A stretch of 38,628 bases of DNA, from positions 1 through 38,628 of IMG/VR virus record IMGVR_UViG_2711768037_000009; one strand, written 5' to 3'. The notes beneath the pieces are model-generated. The model saw only the letters and a program-made list of their open reading frames with translations. It was not told the origin of the DNA and did not search any database. Below, one piece after another: positions 4,794 through 35,800 of this stretch (position 1 is its first letter; every line of letters starts with the position of its first letter). The DNA comes from a virus (Duplodnaviria > Heunggongvirae > Uroviricota > Caudoviricetes). The translations under genes were made by a program, and so were the position numbers.

Positions 4794-4937
4794 TGGGCGA
4801 TTTCAAGAAACGCCTGAAGGAAAGAGCCGAGATGGTCAGAAAGCAAAACGCATCTTCTGTCATCAGATACGCAAGGCTGTTTAGTCGCAACAACAAATCA
4901 GTTGAGGAAAAGATCCTTAGCGTAATCGGACGATAAT
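4794..4937 (+). CDS. Possible small basic protein (47 aa)
   Basis: ATG 4 nt after the previous stop, GGTGG upstream; below the ORF-track size cut-off. Confidence 0.3.
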
Positions 4938-4942
4938 TATTA

Positions 4943-4972
4943 AGGCCATCAGCATTGGTGGTCTTAAATGAC
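4943..4972. repeat. Degenerate copy of hairpin element AGGCCAYCAG...TGGTGGYCTTAAATGAC
   Basis: ~30-bp similarity to the perfect hairpin at ~5483-5514. Confidence 0.35.
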
Positions 4973-5110
4973 TTTTAATAACCGAAGGTTAGTTTGAAAC
5001 CTGGCTATCAACTTCCAGAACCTTTCTTGTGTATTCAGCCTGTATTAACTTCTTTTATGCCTTATCTACACTGCGATAATTACACCAACAAGAAAACAAG
5101 AGGAAAGCAG

Positions 5111-5308
5111 ATGAAAACTATTACTCAAGTCCAGCAAATCTGGGCGCAGCTGGCAAATGAGCCTGTGGATAACAATCAGCAGCTTGAGCGCGCATTTCAC
5201 CATTTTGAAGCCGGTGACAGCATCATTGACGTGTGGGTGTGGATCGACGGGCTGTGTCCAGATATCACCGTTGCCCAGTTGCAGCAGGTGGGGAGGCACG
5301 ATGACTGA
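5111..5308 (+). CDS. Hypothetical protein (66 aa)
   Basis: ORF track 4994..5308; ATG at 5111 preceded by AGGAAAG. Confidence 0.5.
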   Translation: MKTITQVQQIWAQLANEPVDNNQQLERAFHHFEAGDSIIDVWVWIDGLCPDITVAQLQQVGRHDD

Positions 5309-5350
5309 TTTCACCATTACCCCAAAAGCACAAAATGTATTCCTTGAATC

Positions 5351-5515
5351 ATGGCTGAATTTGCCGCATTAAGTGAGAGTATTACGATGGCAAAATTGAC
5401 CAGAGCGCAGGAGCATGACCTGCGACGCGCAATTTATGATCTTGAAAGAGTTCGTTGCAGCACATCGAAAGCAATGAGATATAGGCCACCAGTTAACGCT
5501 GGTGGCCTTAAATGA
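5351..5515 (+). CDS. Possible small protein (42-54 aa; ATG at 5351 or 5387)
   Basis: Open frame ending in TGA inside the downstream hairpin element; weak RBS. Confidence 0.25.
   Translation: MAEFAALSESITMAKLTRAQEHDLRRAIYDLERVRCSTSKAMRYRPPVNAGGLK
5483..5508 (+). other. Perfect 10-bp-stem hairpin AGGCCACCAG-ttaacg-CTGGTGGCCT; terminator-like but no U-tract
   Basis: Seen directly; related words at ~4943 and ~6200. Confidence 0.45.
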
Positions 5516-8231: not shown

Positions 8232-8756
8232 TTAAAACGGAAGGATTCGTTCAACCCAATCGAAGAAAACAAGTATTTTTCTTCCGTCTTTCAACTTAAG
8301 AGTGACCTGACAAGCATCAACGCCTCTTGATACCCCTTCTATTTCACGACCGTCTGCCATGTAGACCCTTATAGATTGGTCGTTTTGATAAGCCTTGCGA
8401 CATATCGCAAAAAAGTCACGGCGTGATGGCTGATTGTCAACATAGTCTGGATGTATTGTTAGCCTACCTTTGAACTCGCGAGCAATGCCATCGATTACAC
8501 CTGATTCAATTGTGCTAATGCGCTCAAGTGGGAGTCTTATACGATTTTCTTTATCATATGGAAGCGGGCATAAATCTAGCTTATTGCGGGAAGGCATTGT
8601 CCCCTGAACGTACATGCAAAACACCTGACCGTCTTCAAGCGTGACTCTTACAGGAATGTTGTTCTTCCGCCAGAACATAAGTATGTTTTCAGCATGTTCG
8701 TAGTCTCGCGGCCAGACTTCAGCCGGTATGCCGTAGGTGATGTCCAATGTTCTCAT
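8232..8756 (-). CDS. Hypothetical protein (174 aa) with two similar beta-rich segments
   Basis: ATG start; start overlaps the stop of the upstream gene; no domain recognised. Confidence 0.6.
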   Translation of the reverse strand: MRTLDITYGIPAEVWPRDYEHAENILMFWRKNNIPVRVTLEDGQVFCMYVQGTMPSRNKLDLCPLPYDKENRIRLPLERISTIESGVIDGIAREFKGRLTIHPDYVDNQPSRRDFFAICRKAYQNDQSIRVYMADGREIEGVSRGVDACQVTLKLKDGRKILVFFDWVERILPF

Positions 8757-12513: not shown

Positions 12514-12527
12514 ATTATAATAAGTAA
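12514..12527. promoter_or_regulatory. TATAAT -10-like element within the ATAATAAGTA motif, in the divergent region between the helicase and ParB-like genes
   Basis: GCTATTATAATAAGTAAGTAACTACTTAG; TATAAT readable on both strands. Confidence 0.4.
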
Positions 12528-12556
12528 GTAACTACTTAGTGGAATGTAGCAATAAA

Positions 12557-13237
12557 ATGGACGTAAAAATCACGATTTTGCAGGTTGATGTTGCCAACCT
12601 TCGCCCGAATACCTGGAACACCAATTCGGTTGGTGCGCAGAATTTCGAAAAACTGAAAGGTTCTATCGAAAAATTGGGCTTTTTTAAGCCAATTTTGGCT
12701 CGTGAGCTTGAAGATGGATTTTTTGAAATCCTCGGCGGCGAACATCGCTGGCGTGCTGCTATTGAGCAAGGAATTTCAACGGTTCCTGTGCTTTCTGTGG
12801 GCAAAATTAGCGATGTCGTGGCAAAACAGATGTCACTGGTGGACAACGAGCGATACGGTGAAGACGACCAAATCGCATTGCAACGCTTCATTGAAGAAAT
12901 TCAGTCAGAACTTGACTATCAACTGTCTGAAATCGCCCCGTATGACGACGAAATCTCGATGGTTTTAGCAAAAGAGGCGGCAATCGACCTTGAAGCACTG
13001 GAGGCGTTGTCTCGTGGTAGTGATGAGCCTGTCGATACCGACAAACGAGAGAAAACCGAACGTGTGGGTGCGGAACATCAGACCATGCGCTTCAAAGTAA
13101 CTTTCGATGCGTCAGATCGTGTTGCAGAAACCATAAAAAACATCATCAAAGAGCAGGCTATTAACACCGGTAATGAAATGGAGAACGCTGGTGAGGCTCT
13201 GGTGTGGCTGGTCGACTACTACAAGGAGCGTATGTAA
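12557..13237 (+). CDS. ParB/Srx-superfamily (ParB-like nuclease domain) protein 1
   Basis: ORF track 12539..13237; ATG at 12557; ParB-box-like GGEHRWRAA. Confidence 0.7.
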   Translation: MDVKITILQVDVANLRPNTWNTNSVGAQNFEKLKGSIEKLGFFKPILARELEDGFFEILGGEHRWRAAIEQGISTVPVLSVGKISDVVAKQMSLVDNERYGEDDQIALQRFIEEIQSELDYQLSEIAPYDDEISMVLAKEAAIDLEALEALSRGSDEPVDTDKREKTERVGAEHQTMRFKVTFDASDRVAETIKNIIKEQAINTGNEMENAGEALVWLVDYYKERM

Positions 13238-13905
13238 TGACCAAAAAGTTTGAAATCGTATATCGCGACCCGGCAGATCTTATTCCCTATGAGATGAATG
13301 CCAAAAAGCATGATGAACAGCAGATCCGAGATCTAGCCGCAGCCATTAAAAAGCGCGGATTTGACCAGCCAATTACGGTCGATAAGAACGACGTAATTAT
13401 TACTGGCCACGGCCGCCGTGAGGCTGCAATTTTTGCTGGACTTGAGCGCGTACCGGTTATTGTTCGCGATGATCTCAGTGATGACGAGGTTCGTGCGAAG
13501 CGCCTTGAAGATAACCGACTTGCCAGCATTGATTACGATGCAATTAAGCTACAGAAAGAGCTTGAGTCGCTTGTTCTGGACGATATCGAGGTTTTCGGCT
13601 TTGAAGAGCGTGAGTTGAATGTTCTCGTTGGCAGCATGACAGAAGAAATGGACACCGACTCGCTAGTTATCGATCTTGGCGAAGAAACTAAACGACAGAA
13701 GGATGAACACACCGAGATCAGTCGCGAAGTTGCAGCGGAAGAAGTACGTGTTGTCGACGTATTGGGCTTTAAAACGCTTCCTGCTGGCTCTGCCATTGTT
13801 GTTGGTGATTTGCTTGCCCACATGGAAGAAATGACGGGAGAAAGCGGGGTAGACGCATTTGTGGCATATGCGGAGAAGATCTCTTCCGGGGAGATGGCTG
13901 CATGA
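13237..13905 (+). CDS. ParB/Srx-superfamily (ParB-like nuclease domain) protein 2
   Basis: ATG overlaps the upstream TAA; AAGGAG at 9-nt spacing; ParB-box-like GHGRREAA. Confidence 0.7.
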   Translation: MTKKFEIVYRDPADLIPYEMNAKKHDEQQIRDLAAAIKKRGFDQPITVDKNDVIITGHGRREAAIFAGLERVPVIVRDDLSDDEVRAKRLEDNRLASIDYDAIKLQKELESLVLDDIEVFGFEERELNVLVGSMTEEMDTDSLVIDLGEETKRQKDEHTEISREVAAEEVRVVDVLGFKTLPAGSAIVVGDLLAHMEEMTGESGVDAFVAYAEKISSGEMAA

Positions 13906-14540
13906 GCAAATACATCATCAACGTATCGTTTCAGACTCGCGTAAATAAAACCACGCGCACGCTGGAAATCGCCGAGTCGTTCGGGCTTGGCTTGGACGAA
14001 AAAGAGTGGACGCTTTACGACAATCTGGAGCTGGAAGTGAAGCAGGGCGATGTGGTGTACATCACCGGCCAATCCGGTTCCGGCAAATCCGTTGTGCTGC
14101 GCGAGTTGCAACGACAGATGAAGGATGAAGGGCTGTCTGTAGCCTCCATCGATGATTTTACCTTCGATAATGAGGTTAACGTCATCGATCAGTTGGGCAA
14201 AACGACCAGTGGTGCGCTTGGGTTGTTATCTATGGCTGGTCTGAACGATGCATATCTGTTTGTTCGCAAGCCTTCTGAAATGTCAGACGGTCAGAAATAT
14301 CGTCTCAAGATTGCCAAACTGATTGAGTCAGGCGCTAAAGTGTGGGCTGCTGACGAGTTCGGGGCTGTTCTAGACCGTGTAACCGCTCAGGTTGTGGCAT
14401 CTAACCTCCAGCGTGCCGCTCGAAAGGTTGGTGCGACGGTAATGGTGGCGACGACTCACGAAGACCTGAAGAACGCGCTGCGCCCGGATATGCAGATCAC
14501 CAAGCACTACAAAGAACGCGTGAAGGTGGAATATGCCTGA
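13902..14540 (+). CDS. Minimal ABC-type ATPase (212 aa)
   Basis: Walker A GQSGSGKS, signature-like SDGQK, Walker B VWAADEF, H-loop TTHE; start overlaps upstream stop. Confidence 0.7.
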   Translation: MSKYIINVSFQTRVNKTTRTLEIAESFGLGLDEKEWTLYDNLELEVKQGDVVYITGQSGSGKSVVLRELQRQMKDEGLSVASIDDFTFDNEVNVIDQLGKTTSGALGLLSMAGLNDAYLFVRKPSEMSDGQKYRLKIAKLIESGAKVWAADEFGAVLDRVTAQVVASNLQRAARKVGATVMVATTHEDLKNALRPDMQITKHYKERVKVEYA

Positions 14541-14787
14541 TTTGAAGATCGTAGAGCTGAAGCCATCGAAAGAGACTGATAACAACAACGTGGAAGTCAT
14601 CCGCCTGCTGGAAGAAGCACTTCAGCACGCCAGAGAAGGAAAAAGCCAGAGCCTAGCGCTGTTGATGATCAACAACGACGGCAGTGTTCTTGATTGCTGG
14701 CATAACGGCGGGCGCCCGTATGTCATGGTAGGGGCGATGGAGTCTCTTCGCCTTGATTTCATCAATGCCAATATCGAGCGCAGGTGA
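14533..14787 (+). CDS. Hypothetical protein (84 aa)
   Basis: ATG overlapping the upstream stop (translational coupling). Confidence 0.55.
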   Translation: MPDLKIVELKPSKETDNNNVEVIRLLEEALQHAREGKSQSLALLMINNDGSVLDCWHNGGRPYVMVGAMESLRLDFINANIERR

Positions 14788-14792
14788 TCGAC

Positions 14793-15683
14793 ATGGCAGA
14801 TATCATCATCAAACGCTACCGCCCTGAAGAGTTTCCGCGTCATCTGGACTTTCTGGAGCGAATGACTGTCACAAAGGGAACTGTAGAGGACTGGCACGCT
14901 CTTAAGTCGCTTCACTACAAAACAGACGGCAAACCTTTCGCGCCAACATACTATCGCTGCGAACTGGATGACCGTCTGGTGGGCGTCGTGGTTATGGCTT
15001 ACCCGAAACTTCTGCTGGCACCTCGCCATCGCATGTTTCCTAAGTTGAAACCAACCACCAATACCACCGTGGCTAACCAGTACTGGGGCCGGTACGTGAA
15101 TAACAACTTTGCGGTGATCAGCCGCTCAGTTGTGGATACTCAGTACCGTGGCGTAGGCGTCTCTTATCGAATGATTAACCTAGTTAGCAGGATGCATGAC
15201 CGGCCAATCATTGAGATCCAGTCCTCGATGAGCAAATACAATCCCTTCGCCATGAAAGCAGGGTTCAAGTTCATCCGCCCTGAGCGACCGAAGAGCTATG
15301 AAAGTGCACTGCGTGTGTTCCAGCGCCATTTCCGTTCCGACCCGGGTGATAACGAGGCGATCGTCAAAGAGTTGTTCGCAATGAGCGAGTCCCGTCGTCG
15401 CCGTGCACTGCGAGATCTGGTGGCGGACTACCACAAGAACAGTTCCCTGGCAAAAGCTGGGAGGAATCGTGGAACGACAATTCAAGACATTGCCGACAGT
15501 CTGGTGGACGAGGCCAGCATTGTGAAGCTGCTCAAGGACATTCACAACCTGAGCTTTACGTCCCCGCTGTATGGTGTGTACCGAAACCCTGACTTTGGTC
15601 GTCGACTGCCTGACACGCTGCCACTGCTGGCATTCGACAAACAACCTTTGGATAAACCGTTAGAAATTGCTTTACCGGCATAA
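14793..15683 (+). CDS. Hypothetical protein (296 aa), possible GNAT-like acetyltransferase fold in the N-terminal half
   Basis: ORF track 14784..15683; ATG at 14793 after AGGTGA; segment RSVVDTQYRGVGVSYRMINLV resembles GNAT motif A (weak). Confidence 0.55.
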   Translation: MADIIIKRYRPEEFPRHLDFLERMTVTKGTVEDWHALKSLHYKTDGKPFAPTYYRCELDDRLVGVVVMAYPKLLLAPRHRMFPKLKPTTNTTVANQYWGRYVNNNFAVISRSVVDTQYRGVGVSYRMINLVSRMHDRPIIEIQSSMSKYNPFAMKAGFKFIRPERPKSYESALRVFQRHFRSDPGDNEAIVKELFAMSESRRRRALRDLVADYHKNSSLAKAGRNRGTTIQDIADSLVDEASIVKLLKDIHNLSFTSPLYGVYRNPDFGRRLPDTLPLLAFDKQPLDKPLEIALPA

Positions 15684-15692
15684 GGATTTGCC

Positions 15693-15959
15693 ATGATGTT
15701 AACCAATAAACAAAAGGACATCATCAAAACGCTCAATCTCGGTTATGAGCGAGGTCATCTACTTGATCTGGACGAATTGCTTGAAGTTTTGCCGTACAAG
15801 ACAACAAAGCAAAGTATCCAGTTCTCAATTCGCGCTCTGATAAAAAAGGGGCTGGTGGAGAAAGGGCATACGCGCCAACGCAGTGACAATCGCTATCACC
15901 GCCGGACTCTTGGGTTAACCACTTTAGGTCGAGCCAAAGCGAAGTTACTGGTGATGTAA
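15693..15959 (+). CDS. Small basic protein (88 aa), likely winged-helix DNA-binding
   Basis: ATG after AAGGA at 6-nt spacing; basic helix-turn-wing-like sequence. Confidence 0.55.
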   Translation: MMLTNKQKDIIKTLNLGYERGHLLDLDELLEVLPYKTTKQSIQFSIRALIKKGLVEKGHTRQRSDNRYHRRTLGLTTLGRAKAKLLVM

Positions 15960-15961
15960 TC

Positions 15962-16060
15962 GGTCTGGGACCTTATTTAAAGACCTGCTTCTGTATATAT
16001 AAATAATAAGTAACTTATTAAATATATACAGAAGCAGGCTTAAAAAGACATGCCCAGACC
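15962..16060. repeat. Large quasi-palindrome (inner arms ~15984-16000 / 16022-16038, outer arms GGTCTGGG / CCCAGACC)
   Basis: 17-bp perfect inverted arms CCTGCTTCTGTATATAT / ATATATACAGAAGCAGG around an AATAATAAGTA core; lies between the wHTH gene and terS. Confidence 0.55.
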
Positions 16061-16077
16061 TAATTAAACACCCCAGA

Positions 16078-16090
16078 AAACAAGTTGGTT
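16078..16090. promoter_or_regulatory. AAACA-AGT-TGGTT motif upstream of terS
   Basis: AAACA-N3-TGTTT family, one mismatch. Confidence 0.3.
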
Positions 16091-16102
16091 AGCAGATGCA
16101 GT

Positions 16103-16115
16103 AAACAAGTTGTTT
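16103..16115. promoter_or_regulatory. AAACA-AGT-TGTTT perfect palindrome, followed by hairpin AGAGCGC-atggac-GCGCTCT just before the terS RBS
   Basis: Seen directly. Confidence 0.4.
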
Positions 16116-16155
16116 TAGAGCGCATGGACGCGCTCTGTGTGTTTTAGAGGGATCT

Positions 16156-16788
16156 ATGACTGTCGAAAAAGACGAGGTAAAAACTCGCCTGACACCAGCG
16201 GAGTGGGCCGAAGCTGAAGCCAAATGGACGTCAGGCGAATATACACTCTCAAAGCTGGAGGAAGAGTACGGCATTCGTCGTGAAACACTCTCCAGACATT
16301 TCAAAAAGCGAGGATTAGAGAAAGGCGCGGACTCTGTTGGGAAGATGGTTCGTGAGTCTCTTAAATCTGACGCAGAGCTTCGCGCTAAAGCCCGTGCGGA
16401 AAAGATAGAAGAACGTCGTACACGTTATGACGGCTGGGCGTATGCGTTGGGGCAGATGGTGATGGTCGAAGTCACTACGGCCAAACGTGAGAGAAAGCCT
16501 TTAGGGGCGATTGAGGATTCTCTCAAGAGCTTACAGAGAGCCAGTAATACCCTTGCAAAATGCTTTGAAGTTTCGTCCAAAGCATTGGGCATGGATCATG
16601 CGGAAAATGACGAGGAAGAAATTCCGAACCTGGTATTTGGTGAGCTTACGCCTTCCCAGGTGGCGAAATTACGTCAGGAAGACGACGAGCCTGAAATCAT
16701 CGATGACGAATTGCTTGAGACGTTGGAAGAAGAAGCTCTAAGCGAATTTGATGCGACAGATGATGGAAGTGAAGGGGAGGACGAATAA
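16156..16788 (+). CDS. Terminase small subunit (210 aa)
   Basis: N-terminal HTH-like segment, acidic C-terminal tail, immediately upstream of and overlapping the large terminase; AGAGGG SD. Confidence 0.65.
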   Translation: MTVEKDEVKTRLTPAEWAEAEAKWTSGEYTLSKLEEEYGIRRETLSRHFKKRGLEKGADSVGKMVRESLKSDAELRAKARAEKIEERRTRYDGWAYALGQMVMVEVTTAKRERKPLGAIEDSLKSLQRASNTLAKCFEVSSKALGMDHAENDEEEIPNLVFGELTPSQVAKLRQEDDEPEIIDDELLETLEEEALSEFDATDDGSEGEDE

Positions 16789-18044
16789 TGGCAATCCCGT
16801 CCTCGCTCAGTCTTGTGCAACTGCATTCTGGACAGATGAAAGTCTTCCAGTCTCCGCATCGATTTAAAGTTGTTTGTGCTGGTCGACGCTGGGGAAAATC
16901 CCGGTTGTCGATCTCCACTATTATTCGTGCGGCGGCAAAGGAAAAAAAGCAAAGGGTCTGGTATGTCGCTCCTACTTACCAGATGGCTCGCCAGATTTTG
17001 TGGGACGACCTACAGGAAGTTCTGCCTCGTAAGTGGGTTAGGAAAAAGAACGACACCACGATGACAATCGTGTTGAAGAACGGTTCGGAGATCGCCCTCA
17101 AAGGTGCTGATAAGCCTGACACGCTGCGCGGCGTAGCGTTGCATTTTGTAGTGCTTGATGAATTTCAGGATATGAAGGCTGACACCTGGTACAAGGTGTT
17201 ACGACCTACTCTTTCATCGACACGCGGCGGCGCACTGATCATTGGTACGCCAAAAGGCTTCTCGGAATTTCACAAACTGTGGACTATAGGCCAGAACGTA
17301 GAGCTGCAAAGAAAGGGACAGTGGAAGAGCTGGCAGTTTGTAACTGCCGATTCTCCGTTTGTACCTACGGCGGAAATTGAAGCTGCTAAGAACGATATGG
17401 ACCCCAAATCGTTCGCTCAGGAGTACCTAGCCAGCTTTGAGAACATGTCCGGGCGCGTTTACTACCCGTTCGATCGTAACGTGCATGTAAAACCGCTTCA
17501 GTTCAACCCTCGGTTGCCTATATGGGTAGGGCAGGACTTCAACATTGACCCGATGTCTTCCGTAATTTTGCAACCTCAGCCAAACGGTGAGCTATGGGCA
17601 ATTGATGAATTGGTGCTCTTTTCCTCTAACACGGCAGAAGTGTGTGATGAGCTGGAGAGACGTTTCTGGCGATGGAAATCACAGATAACGGTATTTCCTG
17701 ATCCGGCTGGTGCTTATCGTCAACATGCTCGCGGTGAGTCTGACGTCGACATATTCAAAGAGAAGGGATTCTTGCGTGTCGATTATTCAAAAAAACACCC
17801 GCCAATTGCGGATCGTGTTAATGCAGTTAACCGAATGCTGATGACCGCATCTGGGGATATCAGGCTGTATATCGATCCGAAATGCAAGCATTTGATTGAT
17901 TCGCTGGAAAAGGTCATCTACAAGCCTGGAACACGAGATATGGATAAGACAGGTGGCATTGAGCATAGTGCAGACGCATTGGGCTATCCAGTACATCGTA
18001 GGTATCCAGTAAAAAACCGTGTTATTCTTGGTGGTTCAAGATAG
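16788..18044 (+). CDS. Terminase large subunit (418 aa)
   Basis: Walker A KVVCAGRRWGKS near N-terminus; ATG overlaps terS stop; followed by portal. Confidence 0.85.
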   Translation: MAIPSSLSLVQLHSGQMKVFQSPHRFKVVCAGRRWGKSRLSISTIIRAAAKEKKQRVWYVAPTYQMARQILWDDLQEVLPRKWVRKKNDTTMTIVLKNGSEIALKGADKPDTLRGVALHFVVLDEFQDMKADTWYKVLRPTLSSTRGGALIIGTPKGFSEFHKLWTIGQNVELQRKGQWKSWQFVTADSPFVPTAEIEAAKNDMDPKSFAQEYLASFENMSGRVYYPFDRNVHVKPLQFNPRLPIWVGQDFNIDPMSSVILQPQPNGELWAIDELVLFSSNTAEVCDELERRFWRWKSQITVFPDPAGAYRQHARGESDVDIFKEKGFLRVDYSKKHPPIADRVNAVNRMLMTASGDIRLYIDPKCKHLIDSLEKVIYKPGTRDMDKTGGIEHSADALGYPVHRRYPVKNRVILGGSR

Positions 18045-18070: not shown

Positions 18071-19603
18071 ATGGAATTGAACGACAAACAAATTAAGGAT
18101 CTGGTGGCGCGACGCCACCCGGAATACGAAAAGAAAAAAGAACATTGGGACTTTCTCGCTAGCACCTATGCTGGCGGGCGTGGTTGGTTTAGCGAAAATA
18201 TATTTAGGTACTTTAAAGAGGGCGACCAGGAATTTAAGGAGCGAGTTGAGCGTGCTTATCGATTCAACCACACCCGTGAAGTGGTAAATCTCATTAACAA
18301 GTATCTTTTTAAAGAAGATATTCATCGAAATATTGAAGAATCGCCAGAGCAGATCCGCAATTTCTGGAAACGAGCGACTCGCCAGAATGCCTCTATTGAT
18401 TCATTTATGGCCGCGATTGATTTGCAATCGTCTATATACGGTCGTATCTGGGTTGTTGTCGATAGCACGATGAGTGGTGATGTTGAATCAGTCGCTGACG
18501 AGAAAAAGAAAGATGCTCGTGCCTACGCCTACTGGATTTCACCGCAGCAAATGCTGGATGTGGCATGGGACGACGACGGGAATATGTTATGGGCGTTAAT
18601 TGTGGAAGTCGCTCGTGATGACGCAGATCCTTTTACTTCTACAGGTCAGGAATACCAACGTTATCGTCTTTGGACACAAAACGAGTGGTATTTGTTCCGT
18701 GAGGAAGTGAAGAAGGGCGCTAGTGGAGCAGCTCGTCGTCAGGCAAAAGTTATTTTAGAGGATAGCGACGAGCATAATCTGGGCGTAGTTCCTGTGTTTC
18801 CTGTTGATTGTATTGGAGAAAGTGAATCACCGTATTTCAGCCCATCGTTGATCGATGATATCGCTTATCTTGATCGTGCGGTTGCAAACTATCTGTCAAA
18901 CCTTGATGCCATTATTCAGGATCAGACATTTAGCCAGTTGGCCATACCGGTGCAGTCACTTTTACCTGGTGATGATAATCACACTAAAGTTCTTGAAATG
19001 GGGACAAAACGTGTCTTTACCTACGATTCTGAAGGTGGAAACCAGCCGTTTTATTTATCACCAGACCCTAAACAAGCTCAGATGATCATCACTACGATTA
19101 AGACGGTGATTAACGAAATCTACCATTCAGTTGGTGTAGCTGGCGAGCGAACGAAGCAGGACAACGCACAGGGAATAGATAATTCATCTGGTGCTGCAAA
19201 AATGTATGACTTCCAGCGTGTAAATAGCTTGCTTGTCACAAAAGCAGATCGTCTTGAAAGGGCTGAACGCCAAATCATGCAACTGGTTGCTAAATGGATG
19301 GGGGTAGATCTGGACGAAGATCACTCTCTAATAGCATATCCAGAAAGTTTTGATATTCGCGGGCTTACTGATGAATTTTCTGTTGCGGAGAAACTATCGT
19401 TACTTCAGGCACCGGACTCTGTACGTCGTCAGCAGATGGAAATGCTGATTGAGAAGATTTTCCCTAATATCACTGAAGCGATGAAAAAGGAATTTGATAA
19501 AGATCTCTTGAAATTTCCGCCAAAAAATGATCTTAATGCTCTTGAAAATAAGTCTGTACTTACCTATGATCGCAGTGCTGTCCAAGAAAGCGGACAAAAT
19601 TAA
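18071..19603 (+). CDS. Portal protein (~510 aa)
   Basis: ORF track 18047..19603 (GTG); first ATG at 18071 after AAGGG; size and position between terminase and scaffold. Confidence 0.75.
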   Translation: MELNDKQIKDLVARRHPEYEKKKEHWDFLASTYAGGRGWFSENIFRYFKEGDQEFKERVERAYRFNHTREVVNLINKYLFKEDIHRNIEESPEQIRNFWKRATRQNASIDSFMAAIDLQSSIYGRIWVVVDSTMSGDVESVADEKKKDARAYAYWISPQQMLDVAWDDDGNMLWALIVEVARDDADPFTSTGQEYQRYRLWTQNEWYLFREEVKKGASGAARRQAKVILEDSDEHNLGVVPVFPVDCIGESESPYFSPSLIDDIAYLDRAVANYLSNLDAIIQDQTFSQLAIPVQSLLPGDDNHTKVLEMGTKRVFTYDSEGGNQPFYLSPDPKQAQMIITTIKTVINEIYHSVGVAGERTKQDNAQGIDNSSGAAKMYDFQRVNSLLVTKADRLERAERQIMQLVAKWMGVDLDEDHSLIAYPESFDIRGLTDEFSVAEKLSLLQAPDSVRRQQMEMLIEKIFPNITEAMKKEFDKDLLKFPPKNDLNALENKSVLTYDRSAVQESGQN

Positions 19604-32823: not shown

Positions 32824-35800
32824 ATGGAACAGTTCAAGAAGAAAAAGTTACCTCTATTAATTGCAGGTTCAGGTGGCAAAAAAAGTAGCAAAAGCTCTAG
32901 TCGCACACCAGTTGAAGCAGACGATACCGTAAATTCTCGTGCTATGGCCTCTATTCTCGATCTTCTTGGTGAAGGCGTAATTGGCGGCCTGGTAAATGGC
33001 GCAAGATCTATTTTTGTCGACGATTTGCCCATAGTAAATGAAGACGGCTCTTCAAACTTTAGCGGAATTTCATGGGATTTTCGAGACGGCTCACAAGACC
33101 AGACACCAATGTCTGGCTTTGATTTCGTCGAAACACCTAAATCGATCAATATCCAACTAAAGAAATCTCATTATGTGACGGTTTCAATAGATAACGATGA
33201 GGCCGATCGCGTTCGAGTCATCATGAAGTTCCCTTCTCTGCGAAGAATAGACCAAAAAACGGGTGATACGAACGGCACTACCGTTGAGTATAAGTTCCAG
33301 ATCTCAAATGGAGATTCGACATTTGTAGATGTGGTTGCAGAAGGTGAAAAAAACGTTGGTATTAAGTTAACAGCGAAGAAAACAGGTGTTTATTATCGTA
33401 GTTATGAGCTGAAGTTACCCAAGCCAGGTCGGGCATACAGTATTCGAGTAGTTCGTATTACTGATGATAACAACGGTCAGTATCTTTATAACGATACATG
33501 GGTGGACTCAATTGGTGAGATCGTTGATACACCGATGAACTACCCAAACTCTGCGTTGGTGGGACTGAAGGTTAATTCTGAGCAGTTTGGCGGCTCTATG
33601 CCTTCTCGTTCCTATCTGGTGCGGGGATTAAAAATTCGCGTACCATCAAACTACAACGAGGCTAGCAACACTTATGATGGCGTATGGGATGGCTCTTTTA
33701 AGCCGTTGTCTTCTTCAAACCCTGCGTGGATTCTCTTCGACTTGCTTACCAATTCTCGATATGGGCTTGGTCAGTATGTGTCGGAATCTATGATTGATCT
33801 CGGCCAACTGTACCAGATCGGTCGATATTGTGACGAAGAGGTTGATGATGGCTTTGGTGGTAAAGAGAAACGCTTTGCAATCAATACGCAGATCACCAGT
33901 CGACAAGACGCATACCGATTAATTCAGGATATTGCCGGTGCATTCCGCGGCATGGTGTTTTGGGCTGGTGGCATGGTTAATATCATGCAGGATAGCCCGT
34001 CAGATCCGGTAATGATGTTTACTAACTCCAACGTCAAAGATGGATTGTTTACATATAAGGGGTCTGCGCGTAAAGATCGCCCATCCGTTGCGCTCGTAAC
34101 CTACAACAACAAGGAGGACGGTTATAAGCAAAACATCGAGTATGTTGAAGATCAGGACGCAATGCGCCGTTATGGTGAGCGTAAAACAGAAGTCGTAGCA
34201 TTTGGATGTACGAGCCGAGGCCAGGCTCACCGAGTTGGTTTGTGGCTGTTGTATACCGCCAGAATGGAGTCGGATGTAATTACATTTACTGCTGGCTTAG
34301 ACGCGTCATTTCTGATGCCTGGTGAAACCGTTCTGATTCAGAACAAATATCGTGCAGGCAAACGTAACTCCGGTCGAATTGTGGAGTTTACCAAAAATAG
34401 CATCACTCTCGATGCGCCTGTGTCGTTAGCTAAAAGCGGCAGCTTTATTCGGATATTGAATCAGAAAGGCAAAATCGTTGAACGCGATGTTCTTGAAACT
34501 GGCGAAAACATAACAAAGGTTACGTTTTCAAAAGCCCTGTCGTCGGCGGAAACGCCAGTTTTGAACGGTGTCTGGACAATTACAGAACCAGATCTCGAAC
34601 CTATGCGCGTTCGCATCGTTAACATCGCGCAGGGGGAAACGCCGGGTAGCTTTGACATCACCGCTGTTGAGAACAATCCGTCTAAATATGAGGCGATCGA
34701 CAATGGTGCAACGCTTATCCCGCAAAATACGACGGTATTGGACCCGACTTACTCCAAGCCGTCTAATTTGCAAATCACCGAAGGGACTTATCTCTCAAGC
34801 CCTGGCAATCTGTCAGTAAAACTGACTGCAACATGGGAAGGGAAATCTCCAGTGTATTGGATCAGTTGGCGACGTTCTGATGAAAACAATGTATCGAACT
34901 GGCAATCGGCGCGTGTAACCGAAGAGCAATACGAAATCGTTAATGTTGCAGAGAATGGACGTTACGACTTCCAGTTGTATGCGGTTTCATTCAACGGTAA
35001 AAAAACAGAGATTATCAGTACCGTTTATCAGGTGCTGGGTACAATGACGCCGCCTGATGCGCCCATGTCATTAACGGCAGTTGGGGACTATCGTAATGTG
35101 ATACTGAATTGGGTCAATCCAGATTCGGTAGACCTTGATCACATTAATGTTTACGCATCCCAGACCAACAATCTGGATACAGCGAAACTGATCGCAGAGT
35201 CAGCGAGTACAACCTTTACACATGCTGGTCTTGGTGATAACGAAACTTGGTATTACTGGGTTAGATCAGCAAATAAGCGTGGCATGTTGAGTCGTCCAAA
35301 CTCAAATCTTGGTACAGAGGCCACAACGCGAGATGTTCTTTCATTTTTAGCCAATAAAATTACCTCGTCAGAACTTGGCCAGGCTTTAAATGAGGAAATT
35401 GACAGTAAGGCTTCTCAACAAGCTGTTGATGAAATCAATAATCATATCGTTCAGAGCGTTGAATCTCTGGAAGGTGAAATTTCCGCATTAAATAAGGAGC
35501 TAATGAGTAGTATCGATGAGTTTAAAACATCGTTTACTGAACGCAGCGATACACTGGAGAATGCGCAAAGCGAGCTTAGGACGGAAGTTTCTAGCACTCG
35601 GGAAAAAGTAGATGATGCATTACAACAGGTTGAAAATTCAAATGCAGCACTTATTGAACTACGCAATACAGTATCAGAACAAGGTGATTCTGTTGCAGGT
35701 GTCGTAGAAGCAGCAAATGCGGCACTTGAAAATGCATCATCTTTAATTGCCGAAGAGCGTGAAGCTCGTGCACAAGCAGAACTGGCGAATGCTAAAAAGA

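Follow-up and report, generated by a model that had tools for sequence, protein, structure and literature searches.

What is the function of the long palindrome that lies immediately ahead of the putative small terminase gene (terS) in the genome of a tailed phage? The question is raised by IMG/VR record IMGVR_UViG_2711768037_000009 (Caudoviricetes), of which positions 1 to 38,628 were analysed as one stretch of 38,628 nucleotides (nt), here called the window, and in which an imperfect dyad of about 100 nt occupies positions 15962-16060. We find that this dyad, hereafter c1, is one of three syntenic copies (c1, c2 and c3) of a composite element present in every SSU5-like genome examined. Our tentative answer, which we judge to fall somewhat short of an even chance, is that the copies constitute an SSU5-family-specific composite boundary stem-loop of ~100 nt that acts on the + strand transcript, by termination or processing.

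Geometry and folding of the palindrome

A sequence-only reading of the window had described arms of 17 perfect base pairs (bp) with inner and outer complementary segments, ranked the dyad among the longest of the window and placed it directly upstream of terS, and coordinates, folding and simulations bear that description out. The parts of c1, all given on the + strand, are as follows.

15962-15969, +: outer left arm GGTCTGGG, pairing with 16053-16060; family consensus GGTCTGGGAG
15970-15983, +: left spacer, with partial pairing of TTTAAAG with CTTAAAA
15984-16000, +: inner left arm CCTGCTTCTGTATATAT, perfect complement of 16022-16038
16001-16021, +: AT-rich apical region with a small stem AATAAGT/ACTTATT (16005-16011 / 16013-16019); the symmetry centre is base 16012
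16022-16038, +: inner right arm ATATATACAGAAGCAGG, the most conserved part of the element
16039-16052, +: right spacer CTTAAAAAGACATG; the equivalent position holds a T-tract at c2 and c3
16053-16060, +: outer right arm CCCAGACC; family consensus CTCCCAGACC
16071-16078, +: CCCCAGAA, a direct repeat of the CCAGA motif, from a right-flank comparison of c1, c2, c3 and an extra copy in plasmid p3RM15114

The 17-bp perfect arms (CCTGCTTCTGTATATAT/ATATATACAGAAGCAGG) are spaced by 21 nt, and the extended dyad comprises 51+51 nt with 73% complementarity. All other inverted repeats of the 38.6-kb window are shorter, and 100 first-order Markov simulations of the window gave longest perfect inverted repeats of 9-13 bp as against the 17 bp observed. 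Positions 15950-16075 fold at -30 kcal/mol as single-stranded DNA (z -10.6) and at -51.8 kcal/mol as RNA (z -9.7), in both cases with 0 of 200 shuffles as good, and the RNA prediction for c1 consists of the 17-bp stem, a 3x1 internal loop, a 7-bp stem and the outer stem. The dyad lies between the stop codon (15957-15959) of an open reading frame (ORF) of 88 amino acids (aa) and the putative terS ATG (16156). No T-tract stands 3' of the hairpin, the tail being CTTAAAAAGAC, and the earlier judgement that the dyad, having no U-tract, is not a canonical intrinsic terminator is true for c1. A search of Rfam 15 gave no match at the gathering score (the best reached at most 27 bits against cut-offs of at least 46 bits, and were generic long hairpins such as microRNA precursors); inspection by eye found neither an IHF consensus in the dyad centre nor tyrosine-recombinase core geometry.

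Three syntenic copies in SSU5-like phage-plasmids

The window is an Escherichia coli SSU5-like phage-plasmid, with 98-99% identity to CMS-2020a, PhiR41_1 and Cyrano/pLF82; identity over the same region falls to ~80% with Salmonella phage SSU5 and the Klebsiella relatives of that phage, and 836 plasmids in PLSDB match the c1 locus (Klebsiella, Escherichia, Enterobacter, Yersinia, Salmonella and other genera). While c1 precedes terS, c2 precedes a helicase/primase operon and c3 follows an N6-adenine methylase gene. The complete SSU5 genome has c1 at 103263-18 (across the record ends), c2 at 33458-33513 and c3 at 78303-78360, and PhiR41_1 (107,998 bp) has c3 at 13435, c1 at 45582 and c2 at 75115. 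With c2 and c3 sitting 30-45 kb from c1, they would lie beyond the two ends of the window, which explains why the element looked unique when the window was read by itself.

A degenerate-pattern scan of IMG/VR returned at least 119 matches and, among the matches listed, all map to c1, c2 or c3. Synteny retrieval, which is independent of the pattern and whose counts cover scorable loci, found the element at 73 of 73 loci upstream of terS and at 78 of 78 upstream of the phrog_2500 gene; 13 of the former and 8 of the latter deviate from the search pattern, mostly by one base. A few unrelated-looking plasmids were matched by the palindrome alone, which is followed there by a phrog_2500 gene and by genes for a DnaB-like helicase and a primase, an arrangement present in every SSU5-like phage record.

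The copies separate three blocks of genes, late (terS to lysis, and accessory), replication/nucleotide-metabolism and early/regulatory, with nearly all genes on the + strand. In SSU5 every copy starts within ~5-25 nt of the stop codon that ends a + strand gene, and from the centre of the copy to the next start codon the distance is ~143-148 nt. Two ParB-family genes lie upstream of c1. At c2, parA and a small parB-like gene precede the element by 1-2.3 kb, and in some lineages they adjoin it. To its left c2 has a hypervariable flank, with no fewer than 10 different sequences, and to its right a conserved one. In p3RM15114, a 62-kb derivative from E. albertii without terminase or structural genes, c2 has been kept and an extra, fourth copy is present at 19403-19457, at the edge of a 2.2-kb RelE/ParE toxin-antitoxin insertion.

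Some further features adjoin the copies. The p3RM15114 insertion stands in place of the equivalent of window positions 4896-5482. Just left of c2, and only in some E. coli-type genomes, a - strand gene (locus L005 2122-2889; PhiR41_1 74232-74999) encodes a GIY-YIG (LEM-3-like) nuclease that is probably a homing endonuclease. c2 and c3 share a promoter-like element ~72 nt downstream, CTCCAGNCGCT followed by TATGAT or TAGAAT and with a poor -35 (SSU5 33530-33600 and 78429-78446), of which c1 has no clear equivalent.

Conservation and covariation among the copies

All copies share one order of parts: GGTCTGGGAG, 10-21 nt, CCTGCTTCYGTATATA, an AT-rich centre, TATATACRGAAGCAGG, 12-28 nt, CTCCCAGACC and one or two CCAGA(A/C), the last forming direct repeats downstream of every copy. 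The outer arm motif is conserved at c1, at c3 and in many c2 copies, and in the inner arms 12 of the first 14 positions are invariant over ~93 unique sequences that cover the three copies and several genera. Changes at arm positions 5, 6 and 9 fall chiefly on the left arm (at position 9 T opposite G is the most frequent state), so the 17 perfect pairs of the window represent the best case. The centre differs in sequence among c1, c2 and c3 and ranges in length from 21 to 27 bp, varying between close relatives by (TA)n slippage, and the left spacer is poorly conserved (~50% identity to SSU5). At the inner arm edges (window 15994-16004 and 16022-16028) the number of TA repeats differs between near-identical genomes, with TA units switching sides, a pattern that, as far as sequence comparison goes, indicates replication slippage in the palindrome.

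Of the cells of the c1 alignment 97.3% are paired. The pair just outside the arm covaries, being A-U in 15 sequences and G-C in 9, and in one lineage the c1 outer stem has changed from GTCTGG/CCAGAC to AACTGG/CAGTT by two compensatory double changes, while its c3 keeps the standard sequence. Because these compensatory changes are local to c1, real base pairing fits them better than two protein half-sites would. The distant Klebsiella pneumoniae element STEFF_14 (rep_cluster_2469) has a decayed c2 palindrome and a c3 reduced to its right arm; that arm is identical to the right arm of its c1, and both carry the derived sequence TATAGGAGCCAGGCT. The right arm looks to be under a sequence constraint beyond hairpin formation.

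T-tracts and terminator likeness

The mean number of T residues in the 9 nt after the hairpin is 3.1 at c1 (31 unique c1 sequences), 5.7 at c2 and 5.5 at c3. On the + strand the c2 hairpin is followed by TCTTTT(T/A), GGTCTTTT being at least 90% conserved, and that of c3 by CTTTTT or CTGTTTT; the - strand has no counterpart to these tracts. The tails of c1 read CTTAAAAAG, CTTAGTAAG, TTCTGAATA or CTCTCAAAC, and long T-runs follow c1 in two distant lineages, STEFF_14 and K. oxytoca (rep_cluster_2470). STEFF_14 also has a separate canonical terminator immediately upstream of its decayed c2. The full structures fold as RNA at -42.8 kcal/mol for c3 (z -7.2) and -30.6 for c2 (z -5.1), alongside the value for c1 given above.

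To judge from these features c2 and c3 look like terminators and c1 of this clade does not, since it has the stable stem-loop 3' of a same-strand gene but no U-tract. Intrinsic terminators share with the element a stem-loop with a G+C-rich base directly 3' of a stop codon, together with the T-tract of c2, c3 and the distant c1 copies. The element differs from them in the absence of a U-tract at c1, in the great length of its hairpin (the inner part takes up ~55 nt, and the outer stem brings this to ~100 nt) and in a stem that hardly varies among the three paralogous sites or among several genera, where that of an ordinary terminator would drift.

A proposed boundary stem-loop on the + strand transcript

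The position after a stop codon, the spacing of ~145 nt, the T-tracts of c2 and c3, the two-stem fold and the local compensatory changes all fit a boundary element of the + strand transcript. The repetition, synteny, conservation pattern, T-tracts and predicted structure of the copies are observed; the favoured reading goes further, in that the element would act at the RNA level, through termination or processing, and would be bound by a specific factor.

In its architecture the outer stem, GGTCTGGGAG/CTCCCAGACC, would be separated by an asymmetric internal loop from the inner stem, CCTGCTTCYGTATATA/TATATACRGAAGCAGG, and an AT-rich apex would cap the latter. The inner hairpins of c2 and c3, each with a conserved U-tract behind it, would stop a large share of the transcription that reaches them; in transcripts that read through, the two-stem structure would form and might provide an RNase III-type processing site or a 3'-end protection site, and a specific factor may also read the near-invariant stem. 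In the E. coli/Salmonella/Klebsiella clade c1 would have lost its U-tract, leaving a leaky or purely structural boundary between the operon of ParB-like, ABC and 88-aa genes and the late operon, and the actual control region of the late operon would then be two leader boxes and a second hairpin (16116-16149). This comes close to one option of the sequence-only reading, a regulatory site for the late operon.

A known parallel is with phage RNase III sites, those of T7 being related hairpins between the genes of long unidirectional transcripts. The T7 sites (R0.3 to R1.3 and others) and the lambda sib and N-leader sites are, like the element, several two-stem hairpins with an internal loop between genes, on long transcripts running in one direction. 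An RNase III site has at least ~20 bp of double-stranded RNA, usually with an internal loop; the element, in its predicted structure only, has more than 20 bp and such a loop. The T7 and lambda sites differ from it in that their sequence is unrelated and in that the element has only three copies, placed at block boundaries and not between single genes.

Several observations weigh against the boundary stem-loop. The U-tract is missing both at c1 and at the extra p3RM15114 copy, so termination cannot be the function common to all copies, and c2 of E. coli-type genomes has a - strand gene to its left, so that it does not close a + strand operon there. In the c1 alignment 10 of 19 pairs never vary and 2 show double changes; near-invariant pairs with so few double changes, unlike the normally drifting stems of terminators, point to sequence-specific recognition, for which a plain terminator has no need. 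In distant lineages, moreover, the right arm is retained where the left arm has decayed and the hairpin cannot form. Finally, one-sided changes on the + strand leave G.U in 112 cells and A.C in 21, an excess that is suggestive of the + strand as the folding strand but that amounts to only 14 versus 8 when distinct states are counted, with none at c3.

The terS leader and neighbouring genes

The genes and sites flanking c1 are the following.

15693-15959, +: 88-aa ORF, phrog_900, annotated as DNA-binding in relatives; its stop codon ends 2 nt before the outer arm
16078-16115, +: two 13-bp palindromic boxes, AAACAAGTTGGTT (16078-16090) and AAACAAGTTGTTT (16103-16115), neighbours of the palindrome and not part of it
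16116-16149, +: second hairpin, GAGCGCATGGACGCGCTC then TGTGTGTTTTAG, directly before the terS ribosome-binding site
16156-16788, +: putative small terminase gene terS, 210 aa, phrog_867, annotated as small terminase subunit in relatives
16788-18044: TerL, its start overlapped by terS

The second hairpin is the sole terminator-like site in 15600-16400 and is conserved at all c1 loci. It ends ~6 nt before the terS ATG, and because its T-rich tail runs into the terS ribosome-binding site, which it overlaps, no space is left for a promoter; this suggests that the late operon may be entered by read-through or antitermination. A sigma-70 scan of 15600-16400 gave no promoter. Matches to -35/-10 elements seen by eye inside the AT-rich palindrome occur on both strands and were judged uninformative, and a promoter for a T7-like single-subunit RNA polymerase (TATA then GGAAG/GGAG, in the right arm) was dropped, as the SSU5 annotation has neither an RNA polymerase nor an uncharacterised protein of comparable size. 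In STEFF_14 the stem of the second hairpin is kept with other bases (GGCGTC...GATGCC) and without a T-tract.

The two AAACAAGTTGKTT boxes, which are cosB-like by position, belong to a dispersed family with ~22 sites in SSU5 and ~10 in the window. The dispersed box, AAACAANTTGTTT, occurs in the window at 343, 393, 1771, 2957, 3442, 4345, 5652, 16078 and 16103, and more weakly at 8267 and 10887; ~1-3 sites would be expected by chance. Nearly all copies are followed at once by a Shine-Dalgarno sequence and a start codon (..AAGAAAACAAnTTGTTTaaGGAG..ATG), many of them those of early genes, and each copy follows, at a distance of 8-12 nt, a conserved cassette that resembles a promoter (TTGACGCC or cgCCTTTTc, ~17 nt, tGcGATAATAAcACCAAcAAG). 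A global regulator could use the box as its operator, or the box could act in the leader RNA.

The operon that ends at c1 (window 12539-15683) encodes two proteins with ParB/Srx N-terminal domains, an ABC-type ATPase, a small protein and the ATPase-like phrog_886, and is distinct from the ParA/small-ParB-like pair near c2. A motif ATAAGTAAGTAAC(TAC) after a TATAAT- or GATAAG-like hexamer occurs at window 12516-12532, at locus L005 3143-3160 and at SSU5 ~33600; these sites are the leaders of the ParB-like operon (ORF 12539-13237) and of the phrog_2500/helicase operon downstream of c2, and may represent a second promoter or leader class. As for terS, the putative product has no match in Pfam or in a sequence search of the PDB, and a scan of genome contigs for terS found four loci, all SSU5-type.

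Alternatives at the DNA level

As the main rival reading, the element might work as DNA, its inverted repeats and CCAGA repeats being bound by an element-encoded protein or its DNA being extruded as a cruciform, a replication-associated cruciform having been among the options of the sequence-only reading. It might for instance be a dispersed centromere or silencing site (as in N15 or the KorB/ParB-like system of RK2), the site of a global regulator of the three lytic blocks, or an origin-like AT-rich core. We consider such a site rather unlikely, though much in the conservation speaks for it: the arms and outer motifs are conserved as sequence and the spacers between them are not, the derived TATAGGAGCCAGGCT is shared by the c1 and c3 right arms of STEFF_14, and CCAGA(A/C) direct repeats stand 3' of each copy. 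The neighbourhood agrees: c2 is close to parA and the small parB-like gene and borders the helicase/primase operon on its upstream side, the two ParB-family genes stand upstream of c1, and p3RM15114, which has no structural genes, has c2 plus an extra copy. However, the compensatory changes confined to the c1 outer stem are better explained by pairing than by protein half-sites, binding to DNA gives no role to the conserved + strand T-tract of c2 and c3, and the variable centre of 21-27 bp, with its (TA)n changes, shifts the spacing and phasing of the half-sites. The proteins that might bind are candidates only, and the element has no recognised likeness to a known parS, operator or iteron. 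The region upstream of parA (locus L005) holds no obvious repeat array that would decide the centromere question, and the cumulative GC skew of SSU5 climbs monotonically with no origin signal and is uninformative.

N15 (four dispersed centromere sites), RK2 (KorB OB) and mycobacteriophage L5 (stoperators) each have one conserved inverted repeat scattered, in few to many copies, at regulatory or intergenic sites, as the element is, but theirs are contiguous palindromes of 13-16 bp or asymmetric 13-mers, whereas the element is a ~100-bp composite with a variable centre and lacks the short (13-16 bp) contiguous palindrome of constant geometry that characterises dispersed ParB/KorB-type sites. REP/BIME- and attC-type repeats share with it imperfect palindromes at gene 3' ends, conserved stems, a variable centre and variable neighbouring cargo; they differ from the element's 3-4 copies at fixed syntenic positions, for which no RAYT transposase or integron integrase was identified.

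We might go further and speculate that the 3-4 copies are hairpin or cruciform DNA sites read by an element-encoded protein (e.g., a ParB/KorB-like clamp, the 88-aa protein or an SbcCD-like nuclease), which would split the 100-110 kb prophage into separately silenced or activated domains and would serve as points of breakage or cargo exchange. This proposal strikes us as improbable but, if true, a single motif would tie the silencing of the prophage to the start of lytic replication and to the mosaic evolution of a clinically widespread phage-plasmid family.

A further DNA-level alternative, which we hold to be very unlikely, is that the + strand, when single-stranded (as the lagging-strand template if replication is co-directional), would fold into a hairpin, which might promote priming or helicase loading or might be the target of an SbcCD-like nuclease; in the latter version it would seed recombination-dependent replication and so explain module exchange at the copies. 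The tolerance of G.T mismatches on the + strand and the position of c2 against the helicase/primase operon are consistent with such a hairpin, as are the SbcCD-like, RecA-like and exonuclease genes of the family, the hypervariable left flank of c2 and the extra copy at the edge of the 2.2-kb toxin-antitoxin insertion. This model, however, is entirely inferential and leaves the T-tracts of c2 and c3 unexplained, mosaic junctions are common at any intergenic boundary, and the palindrome is short for SbcCD-type cleavage in vivo.

The packaging hypothesis

The sequence-only reading had also proposed a packaging site resembling lambda cosN, and this proposal has been weakened by the number of copies, the TerL family, the seamless SSU5 junction and contig breaks in c2, and the dispersal of the boxes. 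In its general form the terminase would cut in or next to c1, at a cos site with staggered nicks, a pac site or the boundary of a terminal repeat, with specificity for c1 owed to adjacent sequences near terS and with c2 and c3 left unused; we see only a slim chance of this, and the specific cos claim is probably wrong.

The position of c1, 96 bp upstream of the putative terS, accords with the proposal, and the linear, virion-derived GenBank record of SSU5 opens within c1, at the equivalent of window position 16021, 9 nt right of the dyad centre. The two palindromic boxes between dyad and terS, moreover, recall lambda cosB, which lies between cosN and Nu1. However, the core is present in 3-4 copies per genome and also in the terminase-less plasmid p3RM15114, and the cosB-like boxes belong to a dispersed family of ~20 copies. 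The end and start of the SSU5 record together rebuild the palindrome of the plasmid form with no bases gained or lost, which is weak evidence against a cut there, since annealed cohesive ends can be ligated in library preparation. Two unrelated IMG/VR contigs (2602041547_000006 and 3300045988_148600) end inside c2, from which it appears that assemblies break at these repeated palindromes for technical reasons. The Cyrano record starts one base after the equivalent of the SSU5 start, but it is plasmid pLF82 re-annotated and made colinear with SSU5 (PMC9928086), and its start is for that reason not independent evidence of a genome end.

The large subunit points the same way. The best Pfam match of TerL is Terminase_6N (T4 type) at 37 bits, with TerL_ATPase below its cut-off; its closest solved relatives are the ATPase domains of P74-26 and T4 gp17, and the phages nearest to it, at 25-28% identity, are of the Jersey-like, Kagunavirus and T5-like groups, not of the lambda gpA or HK97 cos type. 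TerL clades track the type of DNA end, and the T4, T5 and Jersey-like clades package by headful or with terminal repeats, not with cohesive ends. Lambda cos (cosQ-cosN-cosB upstream of Nu1) does resemble the c1 locus in its partial symmetry, in its place just ahead of the gene for the small terminase and in the short repeats that intervene, but the element is not unique in its genome as a lambda-type cos is, its TerL belongs to neither of the cohesive-end families (gpA/Terminase_GpA and HK97), and the adjacent repeats occur genome-wide. The searchable literature reports neither the termini nor the packaging mode of SSU5.

Implications

The searchable literature on SSU5, pHCM2 and PhiR41 contains no description of the element, and a conserved three-copy boundary element of a widespread phage-plasmid family thus appears to have gone undescribed. 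SSU5-like phage-plasmids (relatives of pHCM2 and pMT1, and Klebsiella elements of the IncFIB(pKPHS1) type) occur commonly in Enterobacteriaceae, and some carry resistance genes (PMC9600943). Two practical points follow: assemblies break at the element, and the position at which the SSU5 reference record starts is not to be read as a mapped genome end. While there is little in the searchable literature on the regulation, lytic replication or packaging of SSU5-like phage-plasmids, an element that marks their three functional blocks offers a starting point for the study of how the lytic blocks are silenced, expressed and exchanged.

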